Below, piece after piece: positions 4,344-49,233 of a stretch of 64,000 nt of DNA. The DNA is from Clostridium sp. 'White wine YQ' (GTDB lineage: Bacteria > Bacillota > Clostridia > Clostridiales > Clostridiaceae), in the NCBI RefSeq assembly GCF_028728205.1, contig NZ_JAQYUU010000001.1, positions 421,318 through 485,317 of the forward strand. Reading direction: 5' to 3'. The notes below the pieces were generated by a model that was not told where the DNA came from, searched no databases, and saw only the letters and a program-made list of their open reading frames with translations. Within the stretch, counting starts at the first letter, position 1; each line of letters opens with the position of its first letter. The position numbers and the translations under genes were made by a program.

Positions 4344-4445
4344 ATATAAACCCTTCCTGTAGTTAAGTAATAAGTATATTATATCAGTATTGTAAGAATA
4401 AAAAAATATTTACAATATTATCATGATAGTGTATAATTTATTCAA

Positions 4446-4552
4446 ACTTATCTAGAGTGGTGGAGGGACTGGCCCAATGAAACCCAGCAACCTATAAGTT
4501 ATCATTTGACTTAGTGGGTGCTAATTCCTGCAGTGTTTAACTGGAAGATAAG
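4446..4552 (+). promoter_or_regulatory. SAM-I (S-box) riboswitch aptamer
   Basis: CTTATCtAGAGtGGtGGAGGGACTGGCCCaATGAAACCCaGCAACC ... GGGTGCTAATTCCTGCAG ... GAAGATAAGG matches the S-box consensus including the P1 pairing CTTATC/GATAAG. Confidence 0.85.
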
Positions 4553-4580
4553 GATATTATTTGGGGAAATCGCGTTATAT

Positions 4581-6036: not shown

Positions 6037-6592
6037 AAAATATTTTATTCTTTTTTAAGAAAGCTAAAATATATAGAACAATGGACAAGGAAATGTATGC
6101 AGTAATTCCTAATATACTTTTTAAGTATAGAGCATATGAATTGCTATTTATATAAATCGCAAAGAAAACAAAAGCCAACAATAAAAATGAAAATATATAT
6201 AATGATGCTCTAATACTGTTTTTATTTGTTTTACTTATTTTAATTAATTTAGGAAAACTCAAATCTGTTTTCGTTTTTATTTGATAACTTAATAAAAGAA
6301 TAAGTGAACTTGAAATAAGAATCCAACCTATCTCTTTTACGTCAAATGTTTGGACTGAGTGAATTAACTTATTAGTTATAGTAAGTCCAAAAATAAAAAT
6401 TGTAAATAAACATGTAAGTTTAAGAGAATCAAGGAAAGCTTGGGTTTCTCTCTCATCTTTTTCTTTAATAAATAACTCTACAGCAAAGTTAACTATAATA
6501 CAAATAATTGCTAGTCCTATGATTATTAAATACTTATTCATCTTCCACATCCTCCTGTAATAATTCAAAGATATCATCAACTCTTTTATCAA
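6035..6592 (-). CDS. polytopic membrane protein, co-transcribed with the XRE regulator
   Basis: 185 aa, 5-6 TM helices; overlaps the 3-prime end of the XRE gene. Confidence 0.5.
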   Translation of the reverse strand: MIKELMISLNYYRRMWKMNKYLIIIGLAIICIIVNFAVELFIKEKDERETQAFLDSLKLTCLFTIFIFGLTITNKLIHSVQTFDVKEIGWILISSSLILLLSYQIKTKTDLSFPKLIKISKTNKNSIRASLYIFSFLLLAFVFFAIYINSNSYALYLKSILGITAYISLSIVLYILAFLKKNKIF

Positions 6593-7240: not shown

Positions 7241-7963
7241 ATGAAAAGTAAGGGCAAGGCATTTATATACTCCCTATTACCGGGAGGTGGTCATTTTTAC
7301 TTAGGTCTTTATAATAGAGGAATAATATTTTTATTAAGTACAATGGTTTTATCCATAGGTGGCAGAGAGCACGGATTCGGTAATTATAATTTTTTCGGAG
7401 GAATAAATAATCTATTTGATCATTTTGCATTTATTGTGTGGGTATTTTCAGCAGTGGATGCATTTATGTCTGCAGACTATATAAATAGAGGAATTATTAA
7501 TTTAGAAGAGGAAACTAAATTCTCACAAAGAAATAAAAATTTATTAGGAGTAATACTTTCGATTATTCCAGGTTTCGGACATATTTATGAAGGTTATACT
7601 GATAAGGGTATGAAACTATTTATTACATTTCTAGCAGGTATATTCATAAATGGACTTTTAAACATGCAATTAGTAAATACATTGATTTTATTACTATCAG
7701 TATTTTCAGTCTTAGATTTACTTGCACTTAGAGAGGGGAAAAGCTTTGGATTCTTTGAAGGAGAGTCAAAAGAATTTAAGCTGTTTTTTAAGATAGTTGG
7801 AGTTGTACTTATATTCTTCGGAATATCTGAGGCTCTTCAAAATGCTGGATTCTACTTTGCAGACTTTGGGTATAATTATATATTTAACACTATATCAGTA
7901 TTTATTAAAGCAGCAATATTTATTGTTATTGGTTTAATAGTTATATATAAAACAAGAAAATAA
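7241..7963 (+). CDS. TM2-domain-like membrane protein (two L-P-G-x-G-H-x-Y repeats)
   Basis: The motifs LLPGGGHFYLG and IIPGFGHIYEG each precede hydrophobic helices. Confidence 0.45.
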   Translation: MKSKGKAFIYSLLPGGGHFYLGLYNRGIIFLLSTMVLSIGGREHGFGNYNFFGGINNLFDHFAFIVWVFSAVDAFMSADYINRGIINLEEETKFSQRNKNLLGVILSIIPGFGHIYEGYTDKGMKLFITFLAGIFINGLLNMQLVNTLILLLSVFSVLDLLALREGKSFGFFEGESKEFKLFFKIVGVVLIFFGISEALQNAGFYFADFGYNYIFNTISVFIKAAIFIVIGLIVIYKTRK

Positions 7964-17496: not shown

Positions 17497-18201
17497 CTAT
17501 TCTCCAAGATAAGCACTTCTAATCTTATCATCTTGTAATAGTTCTTTTGCATTACCTTCTAATACAATTGAACCAGTTTCTAAAACATAAGCTCTATCTG
17601 CTATAGACAAGGCCATATGAGCATTTTGTTCAACTAATAAGACTGTAGTTCCACCTTCATTAATTTCTTGTATTGTGTCAAAAATTCCTTTAACAACAAG
17701 AGGAGCTAATCCCATTGAAGGCTCATCAAGTAAAATCATTTCAGGTCTACACATTAAAGCTCTTCCCATAGCAAGCATTTGTTGTTCTCCACCTGATAAG
17801 GTACCAGCTCTTTGTTTAATTCTTTCTTTTAATCTAGGGAATTTAGTGAAGATTGATTCCATATCGGTAGTAATTCCCTTCTTATCTTTTCTTAAATATG
17901 CTCCAAGTTCTAGATTCTCCATTACAGTAAGCTCAGGGAAGATTTTTCTTCCTTCTGGAACATGAGAAAGGCCTAGAGAAAGTATTTTATGTGGAGCTAT
18001 AGTCTTAAGAGCACTTCCTTTAAAGTTTATATCTCCAGATTTGTATGGAACCAATCCAGAAATAGCTCTAAGAGTAGAAGTTTTTCCTGCACCATTTGCA
18101 CCTATTAAGGTTACTATCTCACCTTGATTTACTTCAAGAGAAATATCTTTAAGAGCGTGAATTCCTTCATAATATACATTTAAGTTATCTATCTTTAGCA
18201 T
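17497..18201 (-). CDS. livF: branched-chain amino acid ABC transporter ATP-binding protein
   Basis: GANGAGKTS Walker A, LSGGEQQML signature; last gene of the BP-H-M-G-F order. Confidence 0.85.
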   Translation of the reverse strand: MLKIDNLNVYYEGIHALKDISLEVNQGEIVTLIGANGAGKTSTLRAISGLVPYKSGDINFKGSALKTIAPHKILSLGLSHVPEGRKIFPELTVMENLELGAYLRKDKKGITTDMESIFTKFPRLKERIKQRAGTLSGGEQQMLAMGRALMCRPEMILLDEPSMGLAPLVVKGIFDTIQEINEGGTTVLLVEQNAHMALSIADRAYVLETGSIVLEGNAKELLQDDKIRSAYLGE

Positions 18202-18203
18202 GA

Positions 18204-18962
18204 TTAAGCTCCTTCCCCAAGGTACGCTTCTATAACCTTAGGATTTCTCTTTATTTCTTCAGGTGTACCTTCTGCAATCTTTTTACCGTAATCTAGAACA
18301 GTTATCTTTTCGCAAATTCCCATTACAAGTTTCATGTCATGTTCAATTAGTAGAACAGAGATATCAAATTTGTCTTTAGTCCAGTTTATCATTTTCATAA
18401 GTTCTTGAGTTTCTTGTGGATTCATACCAGCAGCAGGTTCATCTAATAATATTAGCTTTGGATCAGCTGCAAGAGCTCTTACAATCTCAAGTCTTCTTTG
18501 TTCTCCATAGGAAAGATTCTTTGCTAATTCATCCTTCTTTGAATCAAGGTCAAAATATGATAAATATTCTAATGCTTGAGCTTCTATTTCCTTTTCTTCT
18601 TTTATAAATCTAGGAGTTCTAAAAATAGAATCAAAAACATTATATTTAACTCTATAATTAAAACTTATTTTTATATTATCTATTACAGATAAATTTGAAA
18701 ATAATCTTATATTCTGAAATGTTCTTGCTATTTTCTTTTGAGTTATATTATAAGGCTTTAGGCCGTGAATATTTTCTCCTAAATAAGCTATAGTACCTTC
18801 AGTAGGAGCATAAACTCCAGTTAAAAGGTTAAAAATTGTAGTTTTACCTGCTCCGTTTGGACCAATTAAACCTACGATTTGCTTTTCACCTATTTCTAGA
18901 GAAAAATCAGAAACAGCTTTAAGTCCGCCAAATTGTATGGATAAGTTATCAACCTTTAACAT
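18204..18962 (-). CDS. livG: branched-chain amino acid ABC transporter ATP-binding protein
   Basis: GPNGAGKTT Walker A, LSYGEQRRLEI signature. Confidence 0.85.
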   Translation of the reverse strand: MLKVDNLSIQFGGLKAVSDFSLEIGEKQIVGLIGPNGAGKTTIFNLLTGVYAPTEGTIAYLGENIHGLKPYNITQKKIARTFQNIRLFSNLSVIDNIKISFNYRVKYNVFDSIFRTPRFIKEEKEIEAQALEYLSYFDLDSKKDELAKNLSYGEQRRLEIVRALAADPKLILLDEPAAGMNPQETQELMKMINWTKDKFDISVLLIEHDMKLVMGICEKITVLDYGKKIAEGTPEEIKRNPKVIEAYLGEGA

Positions 18963-18965
18963 GTG

Positions 18966-19931
18966 TTAGCTCTCCTTTCCTTTAGGTAATATTTTAGAAA
19001 ATATTTTAAAAGATATTTCTTTAGTTCCAAGTAATCCTTGAGGTCTAAATATCATTAATACTATTAATGCAATAGGATAGATGATATTCTTTAAGTCCTT
19101 TAACCCTCTTAAGTACTCTGGTAAGAATGTTAATATAATGGTTGCGAGTACTGAGCCTGATAAAGATCCCATTCCACCTAATACCACGAAAGTTAATATT
19201 TCTATTGACTTCATAAAGTCGAAGGATTGAGGTTGAATGAACATAGTATTATGTGCAAGAAGTCCGCCAGCAACACCAGCAAAGAATGCAGCTATGATAA
19301 ATGCCATAACTTTATATTTAAAGGTGTTAACTCCCATAGCTTCAGCAGCAATTTCATTTTCTCTAATTGAGATCATTGCTCTTCCTTGAGAAGAATGAAT
19401 TATATTATATATAACTAAAATAGTTAAAACCATTATAATAAATGCCCAAGTAAAATCTGTGTGTTTTGGTATTCTACTTAAACCCCTAGCACCACCTACA
19501 GCTTCAGTGTTCATAATTATTCCTTTAATTATTTCACCAAAGGCTAAGGTTGCAATAGCAAAGTAGTCTCCTTTTAATTTTAGAGTAGGAATACCAATAA
19601 CAAGAGATAGTAGTCCTGCAACCAATCCACCAACTAATAATACAACAATAAATGGAAGCTTATAGTGAATTGATAAATAAGCTGAAACATATGCACCAAT
19701 TACCATAAACCCGGCATGTCCTAATGCTAGCTGTCCGGTAAATCCAACAACTAAATTTAATGATGCCGCTAAAATTATATTAATACATACAAGTATTATG
19801 ATTCCGCCATAATAAGAGTTAATAATATGATTTTTCATTAAAATAGAAAGTACAAAATAGGTTACTATTAAAGAAACTAATATGATAATAGGTTTTAATT
19901 TTGAGTTTATATTATTCTTCATATTTTTCAC
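18966..19931 (-). CDS. livM: branched-chain amino acid ABC transporter permease
   Basis: 321-aa polytopic permease adjacent to livG. Confidence 0.8.
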   Translation of the reverse strand: MKNMKNNINSKLKPIIILVSLIVTYFVLSILMKNHIINSYYGGIIILVCINIILAASLNLVVGFTGQLALGHAGFMVIGAYVSAYLSIHYKLPFIVVLLVGGLVAGLLSLVIGIPTLKLKGDYFAIATLAFGEIIKGIIMNTEAVGGARGLSRIPKHTDFTWAFIIMVLTILVIYNIIHSSQGRAMISIRENEIAAEAMGVNTFKYKVMAFIIAAFFAGVAGGLLAHNTMFIQPQSFDFMKSIEILTFVVLGGMGSLSGSVLATIILTFLPEYLRGLKDLKNIIYPIALIVLMIFRPQGLLGTKEISFKIFSKILPKGKES

Positions 19932-20807
19932 CTACACTTTCTCTTTAGTCTTGTCCCCAAGTAAACCAGTAGGTTTAAATAGAAGAACAATTATTAATAA
20001 TCCAAAAGCTATAGCATCTGATAAAGATGTTGAAATATATGCTTTTGTTAGGGTTTCAGATATTCCCATAACTATTCCACCAAGTAATGCACCTGGTATG
20101 CTTCCTATTCCTCCAACAACAGCTGCAACGAAAGCCTTTAGACCAGGCATCATTCCCATATAAGGATCAACACTTGGATAAGCTATTGCAACTAAAACAC
20201 CTGCAATTCCAGCTAGAGCAGAACCTATAGCAAAGGTAAGAGAAATAATATTATTAACGTTTATTCCCATTAGGGAGGCAGCTTCCATATCTTGAGAAGC
20301 TGCTCTCATAGCTTTTCCAACCTTTGTTTTATATATTATATATTGAAGGAGTAATACAAGTAACGCAGATACCCCAAGCATTAATAGTATTTTCCCGTTT
20401 ATGTGTAGTGAACCAATATTTATAGTTCCTACTGGAAATAAATCAGGGAATGGTTTTGGATCAGGACCAACTAAAAACCTCATACCATGTTCAAGTAATA
20501 GAGAAACACCAATTGCTGTAATTAAAAGTGTTATTCTAGGTGAATTTCTTAGAGGTTTATAAGCAACCTTCTCGATTATAATACCTAGTAATGCTGCAGC
20601 TAACATTGACACAATTAAAGTTGGTATCAATGATAAGCCTAATTTTGTTGAGGCATAGAAGCCTGCAAAGGCTCCTGCCATAAAAATATCTCCGTGAGCA
20701 AAATTAATAAGCTTTATTATACCGTATACCATTGTATAACCTATAGCAAGGAGGGCATACACACTACCTAATGCCAAGCCATTTATTAATTGTTGTAAAA
20801 GCTCCAT
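19932..20807 (-). CDS. livH: branched-chain amino acid ABC transporter permease
   Basis: 291-aa permease; translationally coupled to livM. Confidence 0.8.
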   Translation of the reverse strand: MELLQQLINGLALGSVYALLAIGYTMVYGIIKLINFAHGDIFMAGAFAGFYASTKLGLSLIPTLIVSMLAAALLGIIIEKVAYKPLRNSPRITLLITAIGVSLLLEHGMRFLVGPDPKPFPDLFPVGTINIGSLHINGKILLMLGVSALLVLLLQYIIYKTKVGKAMRAASQDMEAASLMGINVNNIISLTFAIGSALAGIAGVLVAIAYPSVDPYMGMMPGLKAFVAAVVGGIGSIPGALLGGIVMGISETLTKAYISTSLSDAIAFGLLIIVLLFKPTGLLGDKTKEKV

Positions 20808-20830
20808 ATTATACTCCTCCTAATGTAATA

Positions 20831-21976
20831 TTAAGGTTGAACCTTATCTACTAAAGTCTTCTTATCTCCATCTACTTTAATAATTACTGCTCCTTTAACT
20901 GCAGTTCTGTCAGCATCGAAAGTAACTTTTCCAGTAACTACTTGTAGATCTGTTTTTAATAATTGTTCTCTTATTTTATCTCCATCAGTTGAATTAGCTG
21001 CTTCGATTGCTTTAACTAAAATCTTAGCTGAATCATATGCTAATGCAGCAAATGCATCTGGATCCTTGCTGAATTTCTTTTTGTAAGCACTAACAAAATC
21101 AGAAACATTTTTATCAGTATCTTGAGTGTAATAGTGATTTAAGTAAAGAGCTCCATTTACAGCTGTTCCACCTATCTTAGTAAGATCTTGAGATTCCCAG
21201 CCATCTCCACCTAATAATTGAGCATTTATTCCCATATCTTTTGCTTGTTTAGCAATAAGACCAACAACATTATAGTAATCAGGAAGAACTAAAACGTCTG
21301 GGTTAGAAGCCTTGATTTTTGTTAACTGTGCATTGAAGTCTTTATCACTGTCATTGTAAGTTAAGAATTCAGCTACAGTACCACCATTTTTCTCAAGTTC
21401 AGCTTTGTATGCATCAGCTATACCCTTAGAGTAGTCAGATGCAACGTTATATAATACAGCTGCCTTTTTCTTCTTTAATGTATCAGTAGTATATTTAGCA
21501 AGGATTTTACCTTGATATGAGTCTATAAAACATCCTCTAAATACAAAATCTCCACCGTCTTTAGTTATGTTTGGCTCAGTTGAAGATGGTGTAATCATTG
21601 GAATTGATTTTGATGTAGCTAAAGGTCCTACAGCTTTAGAAGCACCAGATGTTACAGCACCTAGAATTGCAGTAACCCCTTCATCATCTACAAGTTTATT
21701 GAAAGCTTGTATAGCTTTATTTGGATCAGCTTCATCATCTTCAAATACGAATTGTACTTTCTTGCCGTTAATTCCACCAGCATTATTAATTTCGTCTTGA
21801 TATAGCTCGGCCCCTTCTTTAACAGATTGACCGTATGTGGAAGCCTTACCAGTTAAAGGACCAATTCCACCTATCTTAATAGTGTCTCCACCTTCTGATT
21901 TTTTGGATGAACATCCAGTAAACGCTGCAGCAACTACCAAAGTAGCCATTACAGTTGCAAGAATCTTTTTCTTCAT
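20831..21976 (-). CDS. branched-chain amino acid ABC transporter substrate-binding lipoprotein (LivJ/K family)
   Basis: MKKKILATVMATLVVAAAFTGCSS lipobox start with GGGGGA RBS at 21976. The track ORF starts 19 codons earlier with no RBS. Confidence 0.8.
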   Translation of the reverse strand: MKKKILATVMATLVVAAAFTGCSSKKSEGGDTIKIGGIGPLTGKASTYGQSVKEGAELYQDEINNAGGINGKKVQFVFEDDEADPNKAIQAFNKLVDDEGVTAILGAVTSGASKAVGPLATSKSIPMITPSSTEPNITKDGGDFVFRGCFIDSYQGKILAKYTTDTLKKKKAAVLYNVASDYSKGIADAYKAELEKNGGTVAEFLTYNDSDKDFNAQLTKIKASNPDVLVLPDYYNVVGLIAKQAKDMGINAQLLGGDGWESQDLTKIGGTAVNGALYLNHYYTQDTDKNVSDFVSAYKKKFSKDPDAFAALAYDSAKILVKAIEAANSTDGDKIREQLLKTDLQVVTGKVTFDADRTAVKGAVIIKVDGDKKTLVDKVQP

Positions 21977-22184
21977 AAATAAATCCCCCTTAAGTTTTAA
22001 AATTTCAATTTGATAAATTATCAACAAAATCAATGTAAGTTGATTAATTAAATAAATATATTTAAAAATCGTTATTGATATATTAACACAATGCTTATTA
22101 AATTACAATATGATATTTTTAAATATTTTCAGAATAATATTAAAATTTGCATAATAAAAATGTTGTATTTTATATAAGCGTTTA

Positions 22185-22288
22185 CTATAGGGTTTTAAGT
22201 TCAACTAATAACTATTCATGCCTGAAAATGTCTAGAAACTGACATTTTCAAACAAGAATAAGTTAAGTTTCCTATAGAAAACCCTATG
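22185..22288. promoter_or_regulatory. nested inverted repeats between the divergent liv operon and a small membrane protein gene
   Basis: Outer arms ATAGGGTTTT (22187-22196) and AAAACCCTAT (22278-22287). Inner perfect palindrome TGAAAATGTC-N8-GACATTTTCA (22223-22250). The outer-arm motif recurs at 29250-29289. Confidence 0.4.
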
Positions 22289-22356
22289 TTTTCACCTACG
22301 TAAGCTTATGTGAATATTATATAAGGAAAAGAAAATATCAAAGGAGGAAGAGAAGT

Positions 22357-22695
22357 ATGGATAAATCTAGATTTAAAAATTATGGTTTGTGGGTAGCTAT
22401 ATTTGCATTGATTCCCTTAATACTACAAGGATTTGGACTAGATATACTTCCTAAGAATTATCAAGAAATTGTTTCAGGCATATTAGGCATACTAGTTATG
22501 GCTGGTATATTAAATAATCCAACAACAGAAAACAAAGGATTCTTAGACGATAAGACTAGTTCAGCAACTACTCCAACTACTAACAGTACTACAACCAATA
22601 ATACTACCGGAACAACAAGTACTACTGCATCTTCAGGAGAATTTGATCAAATTACTCAAGATACTATAGATAGAGAAAATTCTCAAGGACGATAA
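22357..22695 (+). CDS. small membrane protein with a Thr/Asn-rich C-terminal tail
   Basis: AGGAGG RBS; two TM helices then a low-complexity T/N/S tract. Confidence 0.4.
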   Translation: MDKSRFKNYGLWVAIFALIPLILQGFGLDILPKNYQEIVSGILGILVMAGILNNPTTENKGFLDDKTSSATTPTTNSTTTNNTTGTTSTTASSGEFDQITQDTIDRENSQGR

Positions 22696-22734
22696 TAGAA
22701 GTTAAGTAATTTAAGATAAGAGTAAAAAAGAAAT

Positions 22735-22775
22735 GAGTAGAATGCAAAACAAAGCATTCTACTCACATTTTTATC
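22735..22775. terminator. bidirectional terminator
   Basis: GAGTAGAATGC aaaacaaa GCATTCTACTC 11-bp stem with a T-run. Confidence 0.6.
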
Positions 22776-23608
22776 TATAAATTATAATAAGCTTTTTTAA
22801 AAGCATTTAGCATATCTTCAGGGATTTCAGTAATTCCTAAATCACCATGTTTAGTGTCTCCATGAAGATCTCCATGAAAGTCTCCGCCAGCAGATACTAA
22901 AAGATTCTTTTCTGCACATAGCTTAATGAGCTTCTTAGTTTGCTCACTTTTGTTTTGAAAATAAATTGCCTCAAAACCATCAAAGTCAAACTCAGTAAAA
23001 TCTTTTATTGGAGTCTTTCTTATTAGAATAGGATGAGCTAGAAATACTAAAGCATTATATTTTTTAAGTAGGGCTATTCCTTCAGGAACAGTTATCTTTT
23101 TATTTTCTACATAAGCAGGACTTTTATTTGAAATAAACTTATCGAATATTTCATCTTTAGTGTAGGGGTATCCACTTGCAATTATTTCATCAGCAATATG
23201 AGGTCTAGCAATAACACCTTTGCCTCTCTTTAAAACATTATCGTAAGAAATTTCAATATTAAAATACTTTTTTAAGTTTTCTACAATCTTTCTTCCCCTG
23301 TTAACTCTGTGGTCTTTCAATGAAAGTAAAAAATCAAGTAATTCTTTATTTTTATAACTGTCATCTTTAAAGAATCCTAGCATATGAATAGATTCTCCAT
23401 TATGTACAGTTGAAAGTTCTATACCAGGAATAAATTCTAAGGATAATTCTTTAGCAATAGTAGAAGCTTCTTCCAAAGAATCAACGGTATCATGATCAGT
23501 AATTGCAAGCATCGTTGAACCATTTTCTTTAGCCCTTGTAATTAATTCTCTTGGGGTAAGTCTTCCATCAGAAGCTATTGTATGGGTATGCATATCAACT
23601 TTTATCAT
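22775..23608 (-). CDS. PHP-family metal-dependent phosphoesterase (TrpH/YciV-like)
   Basis: MIKVDMHTHTIASDG N-terminal PHP motif; 277 aa. Confidence 0.75.
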   Translation of the reverse strand: MIKVDMHTHTIASDGRLTPRELITRAKENGSTMLAITDHDTVDSLEEASTIAKELSLEFIPGIELSTVHNGESIHMLGFFKDDSYKNKELLDFLLSLKDHRVNRGRKIVENLKKYFNIEISYDNVLKRGKGVIARPHIADEIIASGYPYTKDEIFDKFISNKSPAYVENKKITVPEGIALLKKYNALVFLAHPILIRKTPIKDFTEFDFDGFEAIYFQNKSEQTKKLIKLCAEKNLLVSAGGDFHGDLHGDTKHGDLGITEIPEDMLNAFKKAYYNL

Positions 23609-23820
23609 AGGTTTCTCCTTTCAGAATTAATAAATTAAATATATTTTATATCATTTTCGGGTTATATAATAGTAAAATAAGAAAAAAAGAGAACAATATC
23701 TTTAATGATAGTAGTATTGTCAGGTGGAATAGAAAGTAAAAAAATATATTAAAGGAACTAAAACTAATGATATAATTAATAGATATAATAGATATCTAAG
23801 CACATATGGAGGTAAAACGG

Positions 23821-24378
23821 ATGGTTGATAAAATTAAAATACAAGATGCAGTAAGGATGATTTTAGAGGCTATTGGAGAAGATCCAGATAGAGAAGGTCT
23901 TAAGGATACTCCACTCAGAATAAGCAAAATGTATGAAGAGATATTTTCAGGTATTGGAGAAACGGCTGAAAAATATTTAGATAGAACTTTTACTGCTGAG
24001 AGAGATGATTTAGTAATAGAGAAGGATATTACATATTATTCCATGTGTGAACATCACTTAGTTCCATTCTTTGGCAAGGTACATATAGCATATATTCCAA
24101 ATGGAAAAGTTGCAGGACTTTCAAAGCTTGCTAGAACTGTAGAGGTTTATGCTAAAAAACCACAATTGCAAGAAAGACTAACTGCTGAAATCGCAGATGC
24201 CATGATGGAATATTTAAAACCAAAAGGCGTGATGGTTATTATAGAAGGGGAACATATGTGTATGACCATGAGAGGTGTTAAAAAGCCTGGGACCAAGACA
24301 GTTACTACTTCTTATAGAGGTGATTTTGAAGAAAATGTTGACCTTAGAAGAGAGGTAAGAGAGCTGATTAATGGATAG
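23821..24378 (+). CDS. folE: GTP cyclohydrolase I
   Basis: Has the CEHHLVPF catalytic motif. GGAGGT RBS supports the ATG at 23821; the track start at 23806 lies within the RBS. Confidence 0.9.
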
Positions 24379-24847
24379 AGTAAATGAAATCTTGAATAGC
24401 AGAGAATATAGAGCTCTATTAGATAAAATTGAGCTGTTAGAAAAGGATAGACTATACTGCAAACATAATCTTGAGCATTTTTTGAATATGGCAAGGATAT
24501 GTTACATAATTAATTTAGAAAGAAATCTTGGATTTTCAAAAGAAATAATTTATATTATTGGACTTCTCCATGATATAGGAAGAGGAGAACAATATGAAAA
24601 AGGAACTCCTCATAATGAAGCTTCATATGAAATAGCTAAAAGTTTCTTAGATAGAATTAACTTTTCATTGGAAGAAAAAGAGCTTATTAAAGAAGGTATA
24701 TTAGGGCATAGAAGAATAGAGAAAACTTCTCTTATAGCTAGTCTTATATATGAAGGGGATAAACTATCTAGAGAATGTTATAATTGTAATGCTACTCTTG
24801 GATGCAATTGGGATGATAGTAAGAAGAATTTAGAAATAAAGTACTAA
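24371..24847 (+). CDS. HD-domain phosphohydrolase embedded in the folate operon
   Basis: H...HD...D signature (LLHDIG, GHRR); overlaps folE by 8 nt and is followed 13 nt later by folP. Confidence 0.7.
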
Positions 24848-24859
24848 AGGGGCGATAAA

Positions 24860-25672
24860 GTGAAAATAGGTAATAAAGAATTTGATTTAGGGAAAAGGAC
24901 ATATATTATGGGTATACTCAATGTTACTCCAGATTCTTTTTCTGATGGTGGAAAATATAATAATTTAGAACAAGCCTTAAAGCAAGGAGAAAAGTTAATA
25001 GCTGAAGGTGCTGATATTATTGATATAGGAGGGGAATCTACTAGGCCAGGTGCTATGTATGTAACTGCAGAGGAAGAAATAAATAGAGTAGTTCCTATAA
25101 TAAAAGCATTAAAAGAAAAACATGATATTATTATATCAATTGATACTTATAAAGCAGAAGTTGCAGAAGCAGCAGTTAAAGCAGGAGCAGACTTAATAAA
25201 TGATGTTTGGGGCTTTAAAAAAGATAAGGATATGGCAATTGTGGCTGCAAAGTATGGAGTTCAGTGTTGCCTTATGCATAATAAGGACAATAAGGAATAC
25301 ACTGACGTAATTGAAGATATGAAGAAGGAACTTCAAGAATCGGTTGAAATTGCATTAAAAGCAGGAGTTAAAAAAGAAAATATTATTTTAGATCCAGGAA
25401 TAGGCTTTGCAAAAACATTAGAAAACAATATTGAGGTTATGGATAGATTAGAGGAATTACTAACACTAGGTTATCCAATGCTTTTAGCTACTTCAAGAAA
25501 ATCTATGATAGGACTAACTCTAGATCTTCCACCAGAGGAAAGAGTGGAGGGTACTGTAGCTACAACTGTAGTTGGAATAATGAAGGGTTACGATTTTGTG
25601 AGAGTTCATGATGTTAAGGAAAATAAAAGAGCTGCACAAATGACTGATGCTATAGTTAGGAGAAATAAATAG
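24860..25672 (+). CDS. folP: dihydropteroate synthase
   Basis: TYIMGILNVTPDSFSDGG N-terminal pterin-binding block; GTG start with a G-rich RBS. Confidence 0.9.
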   Translation: MKIGNKEFDLGKRTYIMGILNVTPDSFSDGGKYNNLEQALKQGEKLIAEGADIIDIGGESTRPGAMYVTAEEEINRVVPIIKALKEKHDIIISIDTYKAEVAEAAVKAGADLINDVWGFKKDKDMAIVAAKYGVQCCLMHNKDNKEYTDVIEDMKKELQESVEIALKAGVKKENIILDPGIGFAKTLENNIEVMDRLEELLTLGYPMLLATSRKSMIGLTLDLPPEERVEGTVATTVVGIMKGYDFVRVHDVKENKRAAQMTDAIVRRNK

Positions 25673-25676
25673 TATT

Positions 25677-26498
25677 ATGGATAAATTATATGTAAGAGAT
25701 TTAGAGGTATTTGCCTTCCATGGTGTGTTTGAGGAAGAGAAAAAATTAGGTCAAAAGTTTTTAATATCCTTAGAACTTTCTTTAGATTTAAAAACTCCAG
25801 GAAGAACTGGTGACTTAACTGCTTCAGTACATTATGGAGAATTATCACAAAGGGTTGAGCAGGAATTTAATAAAATAAGCTATGATTTAATTGAAACAGC
25901 CTGCAATAAAATTAGTGAATTTGTGCTTATAAATTATCCTTTAGTTAAGGAAATAAAGGTATCTGTTAAGAAGCCTTGGGCACCTATACATAGAAACTTA
26001 GATACAGTTGAAGTTGAAATCACTAGAAAAAGAAGTAGGGCAGTGCTATCATTAGGTTCAAACCTAGGCGATAAAGAAGAAAATTTAAAAAAAGCTATAG
26101 AAATAATAGATGAGCATGATTTATGCAAAGTATTAAAGACTTCAAGTTTTATAAAGACAGAGCCTTGGGGTTACACAGAGCAAGAAGAATTTTTAAATTG
26201 TGCAATAGAAATTGAAACCATGCTATCACCTAGTGAATTAATGGATTTCTTATTACATATAGAACAAAAATTAAAAAGAGAGAGAGTAATTAAATGGGGA
26301 CCTAGAACACTAGATATAGACATAATTTTTATGGATGAAATAGTATCAAATGATGAACATGTAATATTACCTCATCCAAGAATGCATCAAAGATTATTTG
26401 TACTAGAACCAGTAAATGAAATATGTCCATTTTATTTACACCCATTAATGAACAAAAGAGTATTTGAACTTTTAGAAATAGCAAAAGAAACTCCTTAG
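25677..26498 (+). CDS. bifunctional dihydroneopterin aldolase / HPPK
   Basis: N-terminal FolB block (LYVRDLEVFAFHGVFEEEKKLGQKF) and C-terminal FolK block (SLGSNLGDKEENL, WGPRTLDIDI). Confidence 0.85.
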   Translation: MDKLYVRDLEVFAFHGVFEEEKKLGQKFLISLELSLDLKTPGRTGDLTASVHYGELSQRVEQEFNKISYDLIETACNKISEFVLINYPLVKEIKVSVKKPWAPIHRNLDTVEVEITRKRSRAVLSLGSNLGDKEENLKKAIEIIDEHDLCKVLKTSSFIKTEPWGYTEQEEFLNCAIEIETMLSPSELMDFLLHIEQKLKRERVIKWGPRTLDIDIIFMDEIVSNDEHVILPHPRMHQRLFVLEPVNEICPFYLHPLMNKRVFELLEIAKETP

Positions 26499-26550
26499 GG
26501 GGTTAGAAACTCCTTAGGGGGTTAGAAACTCCTTAGGGAGTTTCTTTTTG
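26487..26550 (+). repeat. 19-nt tandem repeat (GAAACTCCTTAGGGGGTTA x2) plus a third diverged copy forming the terminator hairpin GAAACTCC TTAG GGAGTTTC
   Basis: Seen directly; the first copy contains the folB-folK stop codon, and the last copy plus TTTTTG forms a terminator. Confidence 0.65.
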
Positions 26551-26653
26551 TTTGCTATTGAGATTAAAATAAGCTTTATGATTTTAGCATAAAATATATA
26601 ATATGTTAAAGACTATAACATATAAAGTATTTTACTAAGGAAGGTGAATTTAC

Positions 26654-27691
26654 ATGAGTGAAGCATTGCGCATCAAAGGAATTAATTACGATGTAGGAAC
26701 TTATACTGATGGAAAAGATAATTCCTCAAGGGATAAGTTTGATTCTAATATTGTTAAACGAGAGATGGAGATAATAAAGAATGACTTGCATTGTAATGCA
26801 GTTAGAATTTCAGGCTATGATTTATATAGATTAACTACAGCTGCAAAATATGCTTTAGAGAATGACTTGCAGGTTTGGTTTTCGCCAGCAATCATAGATG
26901 AGAATGAAGAAGAAACTCTAGAGTACTATGAAAAGTGTGCTGAAGAAGCTGAAAAACTAAGGGAATCTCAAGATGATATTGTTTTTGTTGCAGGTTGTGA
27001 ACTTACCTTCTTTATGGATGGACTGGTATTAGGAGACACTGCATTTGAGAGGATAGGAACATTTATGAAACCTATGAAGCTTCTAAAAAGTACTCTTTCT
27101 AACGGTTCCTTTAATAAAAATCTAAATAATTACTTATCAAAAGCAACAGATGTTATTAAAGGCAAGTTTAATGGAAAGATAACCTATGCTTCTGGCCCTT
27201 GGGAGGATGTAGATTGGGATCTATTTGATATGGTATGTATAGACTATTATATGGATAAAAACAATAAAAACTCATACAGAAAAGGATTGAAAAAATATTA
27301 TAAACATAAAAAACCTGTGATAATAACAGAGTTTGGGTGCTGCACTTATGAAGGAGCAGAAGATAAAGGAGGTTATGGCTGGGCTATTGTAGATAAAAGT
27401 AAAACTCCTCTAGAGATAAGTGGAGATTATAAAAGAGATGAGAGTATTCAGGCAAAATATATAAAGGACTCATTAGATATTTTTTGTGAAGAAGATGTAG
27501 AAGGGGCTTTTGTATTTACTTTTATAAGTGGAAACTATCCTCATAAAGAAGAGCCTCTATATGATTTAGATATGGCAGCTTACGGCATTGTTAAAAGTTA
27601 TGAAGATAAGCTTGGAAATGTTTATAAGGATATGCCATGGGATCCTAAGGCTTCCTTTAATATGATATCAGAATATTATTCAATGATATAA
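26654..27691 (+). CDS. hypothetical TIM-barrel glycoside-hydrolase-like protein (GH-A clan signature ITEFG)
   Basis: A KPVIITEFGC nucleophile-like motif late in the protein; no signal peptide; 345 aa. Confidence 0.4.
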   Translation: MSEALRIKGINYDVGTYTDGKDNSSRDKFDSNIVKREMEIIKNDLHCNAVRISGYDLYRLTTAAKYALENDLQVWFSPAIIDENEEETLEYYEKCAEEAEKLRESQDDIVFVAGCELTFFMDGLVLGDTAFERIGTFMKPMKLLKSTLSNGSFNKNLNNYLSKATDVIKGKFNGKITYASGPWEDVDWDLFDMVCIDYYMDKNNKNSYRKGLKKYYKHKKPVIITEFGCCTYEGAEDKGGYGWAIVDKSKTPLEISGDYKRDESIQAKYIKDSLDIFCEEDVEGAFVFTFISGNYPHKEEPLYDLDMAAYGIVKSYEDKLGNVYKDMPWDPKASFNMISEYYSMI

Positions 27692-27715
27692 AAACAAAAA
27701 CCTTTAGATTTTACT

Positions 27716-28474
27716 CTAAAGGTTTTTCTTATAGTACTCAAAGGCTGTTTCAATTTTAAAGCCGCATTTTTGGTAAAGGTTAAATGCTTTATCATTGTCG
27801 CTGTCAACTTCTATGGCAATTTTTTTGAGGTTTCTTTTAATTAATTCATTTAAGACGGAATAAACTAAGTCTTTGCCATATCCTTCACCTTGATACATTG
27901 GAGATATTCCAAGACCATTTATCATTGCTTCATTATTCTCAAATCTTACGGAACACATACCTATATAATTTCCATCTACTTCTGCTAAGAATTGCTCTCT
28001 ATCTTCAGCATTAAATACTTTTGTTGCAATACTTTTTGATTCTTCATAATTTTCGTCAAATATATCTTCGCCTAGAGAGATAAGTGTTGGAATATCATCA
28101 ATTGTAGGGGAAGATAATTTCATTGAACTTAAAATTTTGTTTTCAGCATGATTAAAATCATATGTGAGTGAGTATTCAGTAAAAGTATATTTTGCACCTA
28201 GTTTTTTTATAATGTCTTTTGAAACTATGCATTGTGCCTCGCAAGTAAAAAGTATTCTTTTTACTTTATATTTCTTAAGTTCACTAGTAACAGAGATTTG
28301 TAATTCTCTAAAATATCCCCTGTTCCTATAATCAGGATGGGTGTAGGCTGAAAGTTCAGCTTCATATCTTGTAGGAATAAAAATGTTAATTAAGCTTACT
28401 AATTGATTATCTTCGTAAGCCAAAAAAGTAGTTTTTATATCCTTACTAAAGTTTAGAGAATTATCAAGAAACAT
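27716..28474 (-). CDS. GNAT-family N-acetyltransferase
   Basis: RNRGYFRELQ and QGEGYGKDLV acetyl-CoA binding-like motifs in two halves. Confidence 0.65.
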   Translation of the reverse strand: MFLDNSLNFSKDIKTTFLAYEDNQLVSLINIFIPTRYEAELSAYTHPDYRNRGYFRELQISVTSELKKYKVKRILFTCEAQCIVSKDIIKKLGAKYTFTEYSLTYDFNHAENKILSSMKLSSPTIDDIPTLISLGEDIFDENYEESKSIATKVFNAEDREQFLAEVDGNYIGMCSVRFENNEAMINGLGISPMYQGEGYGKDLVYSVLNELIKRNLKKIAIEVDSDNDKAFNLYQKCGFKIETAFEYYKKNL

Positions 28475-28644
28475 CTCTCCACTTAATTTATCATATGTTT
28501 TGCAGACATGTTCTAATTCTCTAATAGATTTAATTATAGCTTTATCTAATGTATTTAAAGTTTTTATAAACAGAAAAATCCCTACCTTCCAAATAACTTA
28601 TTTATATAATAACACATTCTGACAACTATTTGAGTATTCTAGCC

Positions 28645-29115
28645 TTATTTTATATAGTGCTTACATAAAGAGATAAGCTTTTGTCCAGGTGGAATACTTA
28701 ATTCACTTAAAACATCTTCATCAAAAACTCCATCCCAAGGGGCAATGGTTATGATTTCATTTTCATAGACCTTTAAAAGATATTTACTATTTTTAATTGT
28801 TACAAACACTTTATATAAACATCTTTTAGTTTTATCTACCGAAGCTTCTTTGTAGTATTCAGGATGTATTGAGTTAACGAAGTCTATAAATGATTTGTTT
28901 TCTTCTTTAGGAATTTGTTTCTCTTTATAAAAATTAGTATCAAGTATCGATACTTTAAAATCATCGCTATCACTTAATTTGTCCTTTAACTCTTGAGTAT
29001 AATATTGTTCTGATGGCTTGGACTCAAGATTTATGTATTTAGGATCTTTAAGAGCACAACCACTTAGTAAGAAAATTAATGAGCAGGCTAAAAATGCTGC
29101 CAGAACTTTTTTCAT
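28645..29115 (-). CDS. lipoprotein
   Basis: MKKVLAAFLACSLIFLLSGC lipobox. Start moved to the internal ATG at 29115; the track ORF extends 39 codons upstream. Confidence 0.55.
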   Translation of the reverse strand: MKKVLAAFLACSLIFLLSGCALKDPKYINLESKPSEQYYTQELKDKLSDSDDFKVSILDTNFYKEKQIPKEENKSFIDFVNSIHPEYYKEASVDKTKRCLYKVFVTIKNSKYLLKVYENEIITIAPWDGVFDEDVLSELSIPPGQKLISLCKHYIK

Positions 29116-29249
29116 GAAAATCACTCCTTTTTTTGCTTCATTATAATTTATTAAATGGTTATACACCTTAGAACCTTTTAAGGGTAATAACATACAATAA
29201 TAAAAAGTGTAAATAGCTTTTGAAACATTCATTGCTGTTTACACTTTTC

Positions 29250-29289
29250 TATAGGGTTTTAAGTTCAACTATTAACTTAAAACCCTATA
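29250..29289. promoter_or_regulatory. perfect 16-bp inverted repeat TATAGGGTTTTAAGTT-N8-AACTTAAAACCCTATA in a divergent promoter region
   Basis: Seen directly; same arm sequence as at 22185. Sits 33 nt upstream of the 29322 start codon. Confidence 0.5.
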
Positions 29290-29321
29290 TATAACTTTAA
29301 ATTCTCTTGAGGAGGAAGTGT

Positions 29322-29783
29322 ATGAAATATGGAATAGATATTGAAAATCGCTATTTAAGAAATAAAATTGCCAAAGAGTTAAGGGAAAAAGACCACGTTG
29401 TCATAATTATGAATGATATTGAGTACTCAGGTTTTGGTGATATGTTACTTAAAAAGGTAATCTTAGCTAATCAATCAAAGGTTGATATCTATCTATATTT
29501 AAATCTCGTAGAAGGTGATGAGGAGTCATTAAGAATATTTGGAGATGGCAGTAGTCTTTCAAAAAGGTTCTATGAAAAATTTACTTATGAAAAAGAAAAG
29601 ATAAATTTCAAGGTTTCAGATTATAAAAAAGACATGAGTTATTATATTGTAGCGAATATAGAAAATAGCGTCGTGTGCGTTGAAGTAATGACAAAAAGGG
29701 GAATTTCTTTGTGGGAGATTGAACCTTATATCAGTAAAGCATTGCTTGATATAAGCAAGGATTGGGAGGGAATTATAGGGTAG
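29322..29783 (+). CDS. hypothetical protein (154 aa)
   Basis: GGAGGAAG RBS 3 nt before ATG 29322. The track TTG start at 29307 lies inside the RBS. Confidence 0.45.
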   Translation: MKYGIDIENRYLRNKIAKELREKDHVVIIMNDIEYSGFGDMLLKKVILANQSKVDIYLYLNLVEGDEESLRIFGDGSSLSKRFYEKFTYEKEKINFKVSDYKKDMSYYIVANIENSVVCVEVMTKRGISLWEIEPYISKALLDISKDWEGIIG

Positions 29784-29880
29784 AAGTACTTTATAGTCTC
29801 TCCCTTTTAATATAATTTAATGAATAAAATTTAGTTTTAAATTATAGGATTAAAAAAGAAGTAATTTTTAAGGGGTAATT

Positions 29881-30885
29881 ATGGATATAATTTGTACAGT
29901 AGCACCAAATACATTAGAAAAAACAACATTAAATAAATTAAGAAATTCAGGTGGAAATATAATCAGGTTAAATTTCTCCCACTTTAGTGAAGATTTCTTT
30001 AGGGAAATAGTAAAGAAAATAAGAAAAGAGGGTATTAGTGTCAACATTTTAGGTGATATACAAGGAAGTAAAATAAGGGTGTGGAGTGAAATGCAAAGGC
30101 CAATTAGACTTTTGCATAAGGAACTAATTAAAATATGTTCCTATGAAAAATATAAGGAATTAATATCATTAGAGGAAAAACTAATTCCTCTTAATTTGAA
30201 TATAGATAATTTTAAGAAGATCACTTCTAGGGAAATAACATTTCAAGATGGTGCAATAAATCTTCAAATAGTAAATAAAAATGAAGATTTTTTGATTGGA
30301 AAGGTTAAAAGAGGAGGAATTGTTAGGGCAGAAAAAAGCTGTAATATTAAAGGGTATATAAGAGAGGAGAAAAGTATCAGTACTAAAGATAAACGAGATA
30401 TTGATTTTTGTTTAGAAGAAGAGCTGAATATAATTGCCTTATCTTATATAGAAAGCAAAGAGGGGCTTTTAAAATATAAAAACTATATCTTAAATAAGTC
30501 AAAAGAAATGGGAAAAGTCCTTCCTAAATTATATGCTAAAATAGAAACTTTTAAGGGTGTTGAAAATATAAAAAGTATATCAGAAGAATGTGACGGCATT
30601 ATTATCGCAAGAGGAGATTTGGTGCCAGAGGTTGGGATAAACAATATACCTATTATACAAAGAATGATATTTAAAAGATGTAAATCCAGGGAATTGATAG
30701 TAGCTACTCATTTATTAGATTCTTTAGTTAAAGGGAAAGAAGTATCTCCAGCAGAAGTGGATGATATTTATTGGTTTATTAAAAATGGAGCAACAGGATT
30801 TTTGTTAGCAAAAGAAACAACAATAACTGATGATCCATCAAAAGCAGTAAATATAATAAATAAGTTAATTAATAAATATTCATAA
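29881..30885 (+). CDS. pyruvate-kinase-like barrel-domain protein lacking the C-terminal regulatory domain
   Basis: IICTVAPNT...IRLNFSHF...ILGDIQGSKIRVW and ...IIIARGDLVPEVG...ATHLLDSL...GATGFLLAKETT resemble the PK A-domain blocks, but the protein is only 334 aa. Confidence 0.6.
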   Translation: MDIICTVAPNTLEKTTLNKLRNSGGNIIRLNFSHFSEDFFREIVKKIRKEGISVNILGDIQGSKIRVWSEMQRPIRLLHKELIKICSYEKYKELISLEEKLIPLNLNIDNFKKITSREITFQDGAINLQIVNKNEDFLIGKVKRGGIVRAEKSCNIKGYIREEKSISTKDKRDIDFCLEEELNIIALSYIESKEGLLKYKNYILNKSKEMGKVLPKLYAKIETFKGVENIKSISEECDGIIIARGDLVPEVGINNIPIIQRMIFKRCKSRELIVATHLLDSLVKGKEVSPAEVDDIYWFIKNGATGFLLAKETTITDDPSKAVNIINKLINKYS

Positions 30886-30949
30886 TTTGTAAATAGAAAA
30901 TTTATACAATGATGATATAATAAGTATATTAATTAAGGGGGGAGAATAA

Positions 30950-33052
30950 ATGACAGACATAATTTTTTGGGTAGTTGGATGCATTGTAGGTATTTTTTTA
31001 TTATGGTTTCTAATATTTAGGGTATTAGGGCTTACAATAATCAAAAGTGATGAAGTAGGAATAGTAGAAATTTGGCTTGGTAGAAAAAAAGGACAGAAGG
31101 ATAATAACTCAGTTATTTCTCTTAATGGAGAAGCTGGATATCAGCCAGATTTATTAAAACCAGGAATTCATCTAAGATCAGTATTTAAATACAAAATTCA
31201 TAGACAAAAGCTTATTACTATTCCACAAGGACAAATTGGGTATGTTTTTGCTCGTGACGGAGAAGCTTTAAAGCCATCTCAATCTCTGGGAAAAATAATA
31301 GATTCATGCAATAATTTTCAAAGTGTTAGAGCATTCTTAGAAAATGGTGGTCAAAAAGGACCTCAAAGAGGAATACTAAGAGAAGGTACTTATGCTTTTA
31401 ATACAGCACAATTCATAATTATAACTGAAAGTCAGATTTATTATTTACCTATTGGTAATGATGATAAAGCTTCAGTTATGGGAATGGCAAATGATATATG
31501 GAATAAGAGTAATCCAAATCCATATGCAAATGGGTTTAGACCAATAGTTATTGAAGGTGAAAGTGATCTAGTAGGAGTTGTAACTACAAAAGACGGTCCA
31601 TCTTTACCAGAAGGAGATATAATAGCCCCAGTTGTAGGAAATGACAAAAACTTAAAAGAAATCTATCACAATAATTTTCAGGATATTGAAAAGTTCTTAG
31701 CAGCTGGAGGATATAGAGGTAGACAACTTCAAGTAATTACAGATGGTAAGTACTATATAAATAGACTGTTTGCATCAGTAGAATTAGTTAAAAAGACAAT
31801 AATTGATGTGGGATATGTTGGAGTAGTTAACTCCTTTACAGGTGCAAAAGGAAAAGACCAGTCTGATGTAACTTATACTCATGGAGAATTGGTTGCAAGT
31901 AGTGAAAGAGGTGTATGGAAAGAACCGTTAATGGCTGGTAAATATGCTTTGAATCCATATGCAATCAAGGTATTTCCAGTTCCAACTACAAACTTTATTT
32001 TAAAATGGAATAGTAAAGAGAATGGAAAGTTACAATATGATAGTAATTTAAAGGAAGTAAGCTTAATAACTAAGGATGCCTTTGAACCATTATTACCACT
32101 ATCAGTTGTAGTGCATATAGACTATAAGAAAGCTCCGCTTGTAATTCAAAGATTTGGTGATATTAAAATGCTTGTTGAGCAGACTTTAGATCCACTAATA
32201 GGAACTTATTTTAAAAATATTGGACAGACTAAGACCTTAATTGAGCTAGTTCAAAATAGAACAGAGATACAACTATTAGCCACTGAGGCTATGAAAGAAA
32301 AATTCGAAAAATACAATCTTGAACTTGAAGAGGTATTAGTAGGAACTCCTTCAGGAGAAAAAGATCCTCGTATTGAAGATATGTTAACTCAGTTAAGAGA
32401 TAGACAAATAGCAAGAGAAAAAATAGAAACCTATAAGAGTCAAAAAGATGCAGCAGACATGGAAAAAACTTTAAGAGAAGCAGAAGCTGTAGCTAAGCAA
32501 CAAACCATGAAAACAGAATCTTTAATTAATATTGAAATTCAGGCTAACCAAGGTAAAGCAGAACTTGAAAGATCTATTCAAGAAGCTAAGAAAATAGAAA
32601 CTATAGCAATGGCAAATGCCAATAAAACTAAGTTCGAAGCTGAAGCTCAAGCTGAACTTGAAGCAAGGGTAGGTATAGGTAAAGCTATAGCTATCGAAGA
32701 ACAAGTTAGAGCATACGGTGGACCACAATATCAAGTTACTCAAGATGTAATGGACAAATTCACAAAAGCAATAGCAACATCAGGAATTGATATAGTTCCT
32801 AAGAATGTTATTACTATGGGAAATAGTGCTGAAAATGGACATGTAGATGCTGTTCAAAGCTTGCTAACTGTACTACTAAGCAAAGAAATTGGCGTTGAAT
32901 ATAAACCTAATGAAAATCACAATATTGTAGTGGAAGAAATTAAGAAATCCATTATTGAAACCATAAACTCAAAGGACAAAGACAAAAAGGAAAGTAAAGA
33001 AGTAAGAGAAGAAAGTGAGCAAACTATAACTACAAAAGACATTAAAGAATAA
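30950..33052 (+). CDS. SPFH/band-7 (flotillin-like) membrane protein with a long coiled-coil C-terminus
   Basis: N-terminal TM helix, SPFH-like core, then ~250 aa rich in E/K/A/Q (EAEAQAELEARVGIGKAIAIEEQ). 700 aa. Confidence 0.7.
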   Translation: MTDIIFWVVGCIVGIFLLWFLIFRVLGLTIIKSDEVGIVEIWLGRKKGQKDNNSVISLNGEAGYQPDLLKPGIHLRSVFKYKIHRQKLITIPQGQIGYVFARDGEALKPSQSLGKIIDSCNNFQSVRAFLENGGQKGPQRGILREGTYAFNTAQFIIITESQIYYLPIGNDDKASVMGMANDIWNKSNPNPYANGFRPIVIEGESDLVGVVTTKDGPSLPEGDIIAPVVGNDKNLKEIYHNNFQDIEKFLAAGGYRGRQLQVITDGKYYINRLFASVELVKKTIIDVGYVGVVNSFTGAKGKDQSDVTYTHGELVASSERGVWKEPLMAGKYALNPYAIKVFPVPTTNFILKWNSKENGKLQYDSNLKEVSLITKDAFEPLLPLSVVVHIDYKKAPLVIQRFGDIKMLVEQTLDPLIGTYFKNIGQTKTLIELVQNRTEIQLLATEAMKEKFEKYNLELEEVLVGTPSGEKDPRIEDMLTQLRDRQIAREKIETYKSQKDAADMEKTLREAEAVAKQQTMKTESLINIEIQANQGKAELERSIQEAKKIETIAMANANKTKFEAEAQAELEARVGIGKAIAIEEQVRAYGGPQYQVTQDVMDKFTKAIATSGIDIVPKNVITMGNSAENGHVDAVQSLLTVLLSKEIGVEYKPNENHNIVVEEIKKSIIETINSKDKDKKESKEVREESEQTITTKDIKE

Positions 33053-33168: not shown

Positions 33169-33253
33169 GCTGATGTGGCGGAATGGCAGACGCAGTGGAC
33201 TCAAAATCCACCGACCACAAATCGTGAGGGTTCGAGTCCCTCCATCAGCACCA
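33169..33253 (+). tRNA. tRNA-Leu (anticodon CAA)
   Basis: Acceptor stem GCTGATG/CATCAGC, anticodon loop CTCAAAA, long variable arm, TPsiC arm GGTTCGAGTCC, encoded CCA. Confidence 0.9.
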
Positions 33254-48700: not shown

Positions 48701-48731
48701 TGGAGAATTATATTCTAAAAGGAAGAATAGT

Positions 48732-49226: not shown

Positions 49227-49233
49227 GAATAAT

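Follow-up and report, generated by a model that had tools for sequence, protein, structure and literature searches.

Two palindromic intergenic sites in a Clostridium genome are probably copies of one TA-flanked miniature mobile element

Introduction

Miniature inverted-repeat transposable elements (MITEs) of bacteria are shorter than 200 bp, carry terminal inverted repeats (TIRs) with TA at the termini, are A+T-rich, are associated with target-site duplications and fold into long stem-loops (Delihas, 2008, PMC2229807). The RUP element of Streptococcus pneumoniae, of 107 bp, has a contiguous TIR of approximately 9 bp and a TA target, and is thought to be mobilised by the insertion sequence (IS) IS630-Spn1 (PMC2229807). 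Here we describe two palindromic sites, A and B, found in a stretch of 64,000 nucleotides from Clostridium sp. 'White wine YQ' (contig NZ_JAQYUU010000001.1, hereafter the window). An initial annotation of this DNA had offered two readings for these palindromes: an operator for a dimeric regulator, possibly in relation to amino-acid (CodY-like) control, or a small hairpin-forming repeat family. It is the repeat family that the present analysis bears out, as both sites are very probably copies of a single non-autonomous mobile element of approximately 103 nt, a bacterial MITE, and not binding sites of a regulator. The element is dispersed and multi-copy in the intergenic DNA of clostridia of the Clostridium paridis group, and polymorphic between strains. 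Our literature search returned no report of C. paridis repeats or of MITEs in Clostridium, and as far as that search goes, this is a TA-flanked MITE family newly described for the genus, of a kind that is itself well known.

Results

The two sites are related beyond their palindromic arms

The 16-mer TATAGGGTTTTAAGTT has exactly three exact matches in the window, at 22186-22201(+), 29250-29265(+) and 29274-29289(-), where approximately 0.0002 would be expected in 64 kb from the base composition (30% G+C). Site B is, exactly as the initial annotation had described it, a perfect 16-bp inverted repeat upstream of the 29322 gene, with an 8-nt loop at 29266-29273 and its end 32 nt before the ATG. 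The description of site A was equally accurate: the same left arm begins at 22186 on the plus strand, its counterpart AAAACCCTA lies at 22278-22286, the arms being 80 nt apart, and a second perfect palindrome, TGAAAATGTC (22223-22232), N8, GACATTTTCA (22241-22250), can be read between them. The identity between the two sites runs past the arm, as a repeat finder aligned 31/33 nt of 22181-22213 with 29245-29277, a stretch that includes the 'loop' of site B. A 'loop' that is as conserved as the arm points to the common descent of a repeat rather than to a binding site. Both sites had much more stable folds than shuffled sequences: site A formed one long hairpin spanning 22186-22288 (z -3.4), and site B reached a z of -5.2.

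A dispersed intergenic repeat of the C. paridis group

We scanned one genome per species, from 185,579 species, with the exact 18-nt end of the element (TATAGGGTTTTAAGTTMA) and obtained 78 loci. Clostridium paridis YIM B02565 accounted for 34 exact matches in 31 loci distributed over 9 contigs, and single loci were found in C. rhizosphaerae, C. weizhouense, C. cavendishii, Ca. C. stratigraminis and Ca. C. radicumherbarum; the remaining matches were unrelated chance singles with no second arm, and chance seems to explain the one in C. sartagoforme as well. In the Clostridium matches, the 18-mer begins an element of approximately 103 nt that ends with AAAACCCTATA, or a shorter derivative of it. 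With a profile built from 25 full-length copies (nhmmer), the 31 C. paridis loci yielded 42 copies, eight of them lacking the exact 18-mer, and the window yielded no copies other than sites A and B. The C. paridis loci are 8-kb stretches taken around the exact matches (248 kb altogether). The eight 'unselected' copies correspond to approximately one per 30 kb, a density similar to that of the window (two per 64 kb); by extrapolation this suggests a whole-genome copy number on the order of 100. Full-length C. paridis copies share a mean pairwise identity of 89%, and site A is 86-95% identical to about 20 of them. Over the best-aligned segments of two orthologous loci (L095, corresponding to window 17771-25767, and L063, corresponding to 25768-32967), the window and YIM B02565 are 93.5-95.5% identical; identity to Clostridium sp. 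YIM B02551 (L101) is 90-94%.

Based on crude gene calls from open reading frames (ORFs), all copies are intergenic, with four small overlaps at ORF ends; the flanking genes are divergent for 12 copies, tandem for 24 and convergent for 2. In the tandem contexts, 11 copies point in the direction of the genes and 13 against it. The copies are associated neither with promoters nor with a particular strand, which leaves the proposed amino-acid (CodY-like) control unsupported. The initial annotation had itself named dispersal independent of promoters as the outcome that would speak against an operator, and the pattern search across genomes found a dispersed repeat. Environmental metagenomes, scanned with a degenerate 29-nt end pattern, yielded six loci, all of them MITE forms. 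Three of these (L106-L108, FWWL01…) are distinct loci with the subfamily of C. rhizosphaerae type, and the repeat family is thus multi-copy in at least two lineages. In viral contigs, the 16-mer had 22 matches, all by chance and none with a second arm.

Anatomy and predicted fold

The full consensus of the element is TATAGGGTTTTAAGTTCAACTAATAACTTATTCATGCCTGAAAATGTCCAGAAGCCGACATTTTCAAACAAGTATAAGTTAAGTTTCCTATAAAAAACCCTATA (103 nt), or, written with its flanks, TA-TAGGGTTTTAAGTTCAACTAATAACTTATTCATGCCTGAAAATGTCCAGAAGCCGACATTTTCAAACAAGTATAAGTTAAGTTTCCTATAAAAAACCCTA-TA, and its ends are TAGGGTTTTAAGTTCAACTAATAACTTAT and TAGGGTTTTTTATAGGAAACTTAACTTAT. The TIRs (TATAGGGTTTT / AAAACCCTATA) are perfect for 9-11 bp (11 when the TA is included) and match at 19/29 positions when extended. 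The predicted fold is a single stem-loop in which the 11-bp termini, the block AACTTAT / ATAAGTT and an apical stem of 10 bp are paired and are parted by an asymmetric internal loop, the consensus hairpin having an energy of -31.6 kcal/mol with RNA parameters and of -19.7 with DNA parameters. With the inverted repeats, the second paired block and the apical hairpin, single-stranded DNA or a transcript of the element would therefore fold into one long stem-loop. In an alignment of 15 copies from 6 species, 5/26 consensus pairs display compensatory double changes, and the apical hairpin is replaced in the rhizosphaerae-type and stratigraminis-type subfamilies by a different sequence that is still self-complementary. 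The left 19 nt, invariant in this alignment, are imposed by the search pattern and carry no evidence of conservation; the left-TIR columns of site A are likewise invariant, and partly imposed by the pattern. Copies fall into recurrent size classes of approximately 103, 80-83 (apical hairpin lost), 70 (71) and 40 nt.

Neither site matches an Rfam covariance model at the gathering threshold, and relaxing the E-value to 10 around site A brought up only miRNA and snoRNA matches at chance level. Scans for sigma-70-like promoters and for intrinsic-terminator-like signals found none in either copy of the window. A role as intrinsic terminator was thus rejected, there being no terminator-like site at either locus, and 12 copies lying between divergent genes, with no 3' end near. 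Deviations from Watson-Crick pairing in the stems amount to 17 G:T vs 10 A:C, an excess that is not significant; since no strand is favoured, nothing points to selection at the RNA level.

Filled and empty sites, and deletions in place

The protein encoded downstream of site B has only three homologues that we could find, all from C. paridis-like sources, and these led to four further copies of the site B locus (Table 1). The empty allele of YIM B02551 reads CTTTTC-TATATAAT, where filled alleles read CTTTTC-TA[TAGGG...CCCTA]TA-TATAAC. One insertion point is common to all filled alleles, and the simplest history is therefore that a long form inserted once and was then shortened by separate internal deletions. 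A second, independent comparison is provided by a 200-nt module unrelated to the element, present in five copies in the C. paridis loci: four read GTC-TA-GTAAAT, and the fifth (L077) is filled and reads GTC-CA-[TAGGGG...CCCTA]-TA-GTAAAT. In both comparisons, the gain consists of the core TAGGG...CCCTA and one extra TA, as is characteristic of the RUP and Correia MITEs.

Site A is a full-length copy of the element and site B a remnant of internal deletion, matching positions 1-30 of the profile and then its right end. The perfect 16-bp palindrome of the window is a by-product of the deletion junction and not a designed binding site, AACTTA in the left half being by chance complementary to TAAGTT. 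Similarly, two metagenome entries (L110 1052-1151 and L105 1040-1119; JGI Ga0075037 and Ga0075040) represent one locus in a 100-nt and an 80-nt form, the apical hairpin again having been lost in place. The palindromic interior is unstable and has been lost in place more than once, leaving remnants of 80, 71 and 40 nt.

Site A is identical in the window, in YIM B02565 (L095) and in YIM B02551 (L101 2079-2181), and is an older, intact and fixed copy. It carries no single-nucleotide polymorphism (SNP) in 102 nt vs approximately 2.5 expected from its flanks, a difference that is not significant.

Another copy, L082 3579-3610(-), is truncated after 32 nt and borders directly on the ribosome-binding site of a 513-aa gene whose product starts MKKVALFLGAGAECSYGLPSGG; an inserted gene cassette may begin or end here. 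We considered this left end together with the gene as a candidate autonomous element and rejected it, the copy being truncated and devoid of a right end. An all-against-all BLAST of the C. paridis loci showed that only the element itself and the unrelated 200-nt module are shared among them. No RAYT or TnpA gene flanked by copies was found in the 31 loci (248 kb).

Neighbouring genes and other features

Both sites lie between divergent genes (Table 1). The initial annotation had placed site A between the liv operon and the gene of a small membrane protein. Exact-protein look-ups returned no record for either downstream protein (22357 and 29322 genes). In YIM B02551, the empty site of the B locus falls within a weak TTTACA-16-TAAATT match, which the insertion would split; such a match is at chance level for this AT-rich DNA, and the splitting of a promoter there is speculation.

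Table 1. Coordinates of the two sites, alleles of the site B locus, neighbouring genes and other features.
Feature	Source	Position	Strand	Basis or remark
Site A, full-length repeat copy	window	22186..22288	+	profile hit over positions 1-103, E 5.9e-28 (nhmmer)
Site A core TAGGG...CCCTA	window	22188-22286	+	flanks TA 22186-22187 and TG 22287-22288
Site A left TIR TATAGGGTTTT	window	22186..22196	+	pairs with 22278-22288
Site A right TIR AAAACCCTATG	window	22278..22288	+	sequence, fold, profile
Apical hairpin TGAAAATGTC, N8, GACATTTTCA	window	22223..22250	+	found in all full-length copies
Site B, 40-nt internal-deletion derivative	window	29250..29289	+	left 29-30 nt joined to last 10-11 nt of the element
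Site B core	window	29252-29287	+	TA flank on each side
Site B locus, empty	YIM B02551 (L101)			...TTTACACTTTTC TATATAATTTTAAATTC...
Site B locus, empty	metagenome contigs L102, L103			
Site B locus, 82-nt form	metagenome contig L104			
Site B locus, 40-nt form	YIM B02565 (L063)			TATAGGGTTTTAAGTT joined to AAGTATCCTATAAAAAACCCTATA
Site B locus, different 40-nt form	window			TATAGGGTTTTAAGTTCAACTATTAACTT joined to AAAACCCTATA
LivJ-type periplasmic binding protein, upstream of site A	window	20831..22033	-	Pfam Peripla_BP_6, E 1.2e-70
112-aa holin-like small membrane protein, downstream of site A	window	22357..22695	+	weak Pfam Phage_holin_1, E 0.0015, below family cut-off
DUF4883 protein, upstream of site B	window	28645..29115	-	Pfam DUF4883, E 1.6e-30; start 29115
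153-aa protein, downstream of site B	window	29322..29783	+	no Pfam match
200-nt module	YIM B02565 (L056)	4676-4892	-	
200-nt module	YIM B02565 (L086)	5559-5772	-	
200-nt module	YIM B02565 (L078)	6218-6430	+	
200-nt module	YIM B02565 (L032)	7470-7674	+	
200-nt module	YIM B02565 (L077)	6081-6336	+	
SAM (S-box) riboswitch	window	4445-4554	+	Rfam gathering level
c-di-GMP-I riboswitch	window	56362-56507	+	Rfam gathering level
tRNA	window	33169-33250	+	Rfam gathering level

The 200-nt module constitutes a second repeat family of C. paridis YIM B02565, absent from the window, with copies that are 85-88% identical. It comprises a promoter-like TTTGAAT/TATAAT, a conserved part of approximately 100 nt (…AGAATTAGTCGCCTGCC…GGAAAGGCAGATGCGAG…) and a terminator-like hairpin with a T run, and precedes unrelated genes that, judging by their first residues, encode an ABC transporter and membrane, MetG-like, ATP-cone/NrdD-like and MFS proteins. 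No Rfam family matched it at the gathering or at a relaxed threshold. The module may represent a leader or attenuator not described so far, or else a small RNA present in several copies.

At approximately 27686-27691, the window lacks a segment of approximately 830 bp that is present in YIM B02565 (L063 5280-6112) and in YIM B02551 (L101 7597-8424); in the latter, it carries a gene for a MerR/GyrI-like regulator between a 345-aa gene and a GNAT acetyltransferase gene. Four copies of a direct repeat of 70-150 nt, spaced by 1.3-3.2 kb, are found at 48540-55502. Each covers the 3' end of a gene (…GTTGCTATTGAAGAAGC…AAATAA) and a conserved hairpin-terminator (CAAGACACGT…ACGTGTCTTTTTTT), which indicates that paralogous genes are probably arrayed here in tandem and have their downstream regions in common. 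At 59-64 kb, downstream of the c-di-GMP-I riboswitch, is a region whose direct repeats resemble the YD/RHS type.

Discussion

The element combines the published hallmarks of bacterial MITEs: it is small, A+T-rich, intergenic and multi-copy, has TIRs, TA termini and a TA gain, folds into a long stem-loop, and is polymorphic between strains by presence and absence. A consensus of 103 nt, with variants of 40-82 nt, leaves no room for a transposase. We propose that a TA-targeting DDE transposase of the IS630/Tc1-mariner type would mobilise it in trans, as has been suggested for RUP; this proposal comes from the TA signature only. At site B, one insertion of the long form would have been followed by independent internal deletions. 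Effects on neighbouring genes would be incidental: the insertion at site B may split the promoter-like site or add a stable hairpin to the 5' untranslated region (UTR), and both copies of the window may, according to the folding model, add such a hairpin if transcribed.

Several observations weigh against this interpretation. No transposase-bearing element with matching ends was found in the 31 C. paridis loci or among the exact-end matches of the 185,579 species genomes; plasmids and phages held no autonomous partner either, BLAST giving no match, nor did the metagenome scan, in which all loci were MITE forms. The link to an IS630-type enzyme therefore comes from the TA flanks only. Because the outermost bases of the element are themselves TA, a 2-bp duplication is not formally separable from an asymmetric insert (TATAGGG...CCCTA) made with no duplication, and the comparisons of filled and empty sites number only two. 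The whole-genome copy number is an extrapolation from 8-kb stretches around exact matches. Finally, the complete conservation of site A in three strains, next to flanks with a few SNPs, weakly allows an acquired function.

A rival reading is that the element is, or has become, a functional module of structured RNA, which once transcribed would act as a 5'- or 3'-UTR hairpin for stabilisation or processing or as a small RNA family, the spread of the repeat being secondary. The predicted RNA hairpins are stable, both copies of the window are preceded by a likely promoter and followed by the ribosome-binding site of the downstream gene, site A does not vary among three strains, and for Correia, ERIC, BOX and RUP elements co-transcription and effects on mRNA are known (PMC2229807; PMC3049150). 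Yet the tandem copies show no orientation bias, the excess of G:T over A:C is not significant, promoter-like and terminator-like signals as well as Rfam matches are lacking, and site B is dispensable in a close relative while its interior decays freely, so that we regard this explanation as unlikely. A little less likely still is a reading in which the long hairpin itself is the functional unit, be it as the substrate of an undescribed clostridial mobilisation system that recognises structure, or as a co-opted RNA or DNA hairpin modulating adjacent genes, for which the fixed copy upstream of the holin-like gene would be an example. In the subfamily of each species, compensatory changes have given the apical stem a new sequence, and the asymmetric internal loop has been kept.

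The same compensatory changes, which keep the stems of an element that is a hairpin over its whole length, are what a structure-recognising enzyme would select, and could suit a REP-like or PATE-like element spread on single-stranded DNA by a hairpin-recognising tyrosine transposase (RAYT or IS200/IS605 TnpA). The formal ambiguity of the TA 'duplication' and the failure to find a DDE partner in the C. paridis loci and metagenomes fit such an element too. However, the ends of the repeat are genuine TIRs with TA flanking them symmetrically, its left flanks are variable and it has no conserved target of 4-5 nt on one side only, it is, with 103 nt, much longer than REPs (20-40 nt), and the 31 loci contain neither a RAYT or TnpA gene flanked by copies nor a shared gene-sized repeat; we consider this origin very doubtful. 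Least credible of all, and in our view highly improbable, is the operator of the initial annotation, bound by a dimeric transcription factor that would co-regulate the two downstream genes. What favours it is that the perfect inverted repeat of site B stands shortly upstream of a start codon and that both copies of the window occupy divergent promoter regions, facing the downstream gene on the plus strand. Against this, arms set 80 nt apart at site A are not the geometry of an operator, and the 248 kb sampled from the sister strain contain at least 42 copies, which occur in both orientations and in tandem, convergent and divergent contexts alike. Alignment of orthologous regions also counts against an operator, as the same gene has no site B in front of it in YIM B02551 or in the metagenome contigs L102 and L103, and the interior of site B differs wholly between the window and YIM B02565. 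The 'spacer', conserved like the arms, fits the common descent of a repeat.

Taking the two sites as MITE copies removes a false regulatory lead, and predictions of operators, promoters or small RNAs in genomes of the C. paridis group should treat such palindromes as repeats and mask them. The allelic series of site B (empty, 82 nt and two independent 40-nt remnants) illustrates the decay in place of long palindromic insertions, a decay that can by accident yield 'perfect operator-like' palindromes. The copies are also of use as markers for strain typing.

Among described elements, RUP of S. pneumoniae appears to be the nearest analogue, followed by the Correia elements; the comparison is one of features and not of sequence. 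Like RUP, the clostridial element resides in a Firmicute host, is of similar length (approximately 103 nt vs 107 bp), has a contiguous TIR of approximately 9 bp, TA termini and a TA target, is non-coding, forms a long stem-loop and is intergenic in on the order of 100 copies, a number extrapolated here. It differs in that RUP has a known cognate IS with similar TIRs, where none was found here, and in that RUP is reported to target IS elements, which was not seen for our copies. The Correia (NEMIS) elements of Neisseria are likewise TA-flanked MITEs with TIRs, defined by alignments of filled and empty sites; they too come in size classes created by an internal segment (approximately 155 vs 107 bp, compared to 103, 82, 71 and 40 nt here) and often lie between a promoter and its gene. 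Their TIRs of approximately 24-26 bp, however, carry promoter elements and an IHF site, whereas the clostridial TIR is shorter and has no promoter-like site, and they belong to another phylum and are unrelated in sequence. With the ERIC (IRU) and REP (BIME) families of enterobacteria, the element shares dispersed intergenic imperfect palindromes that form hairpins when transcribed. ERIC differs by its TIRs of 7 bp and its length of approximately 127 bp, and REPs, of 20-40 nt, have neither TIRs nor a target duplication and are tied to RAYT transposases, in contrast to the TA gain observed at the clostridial sites.

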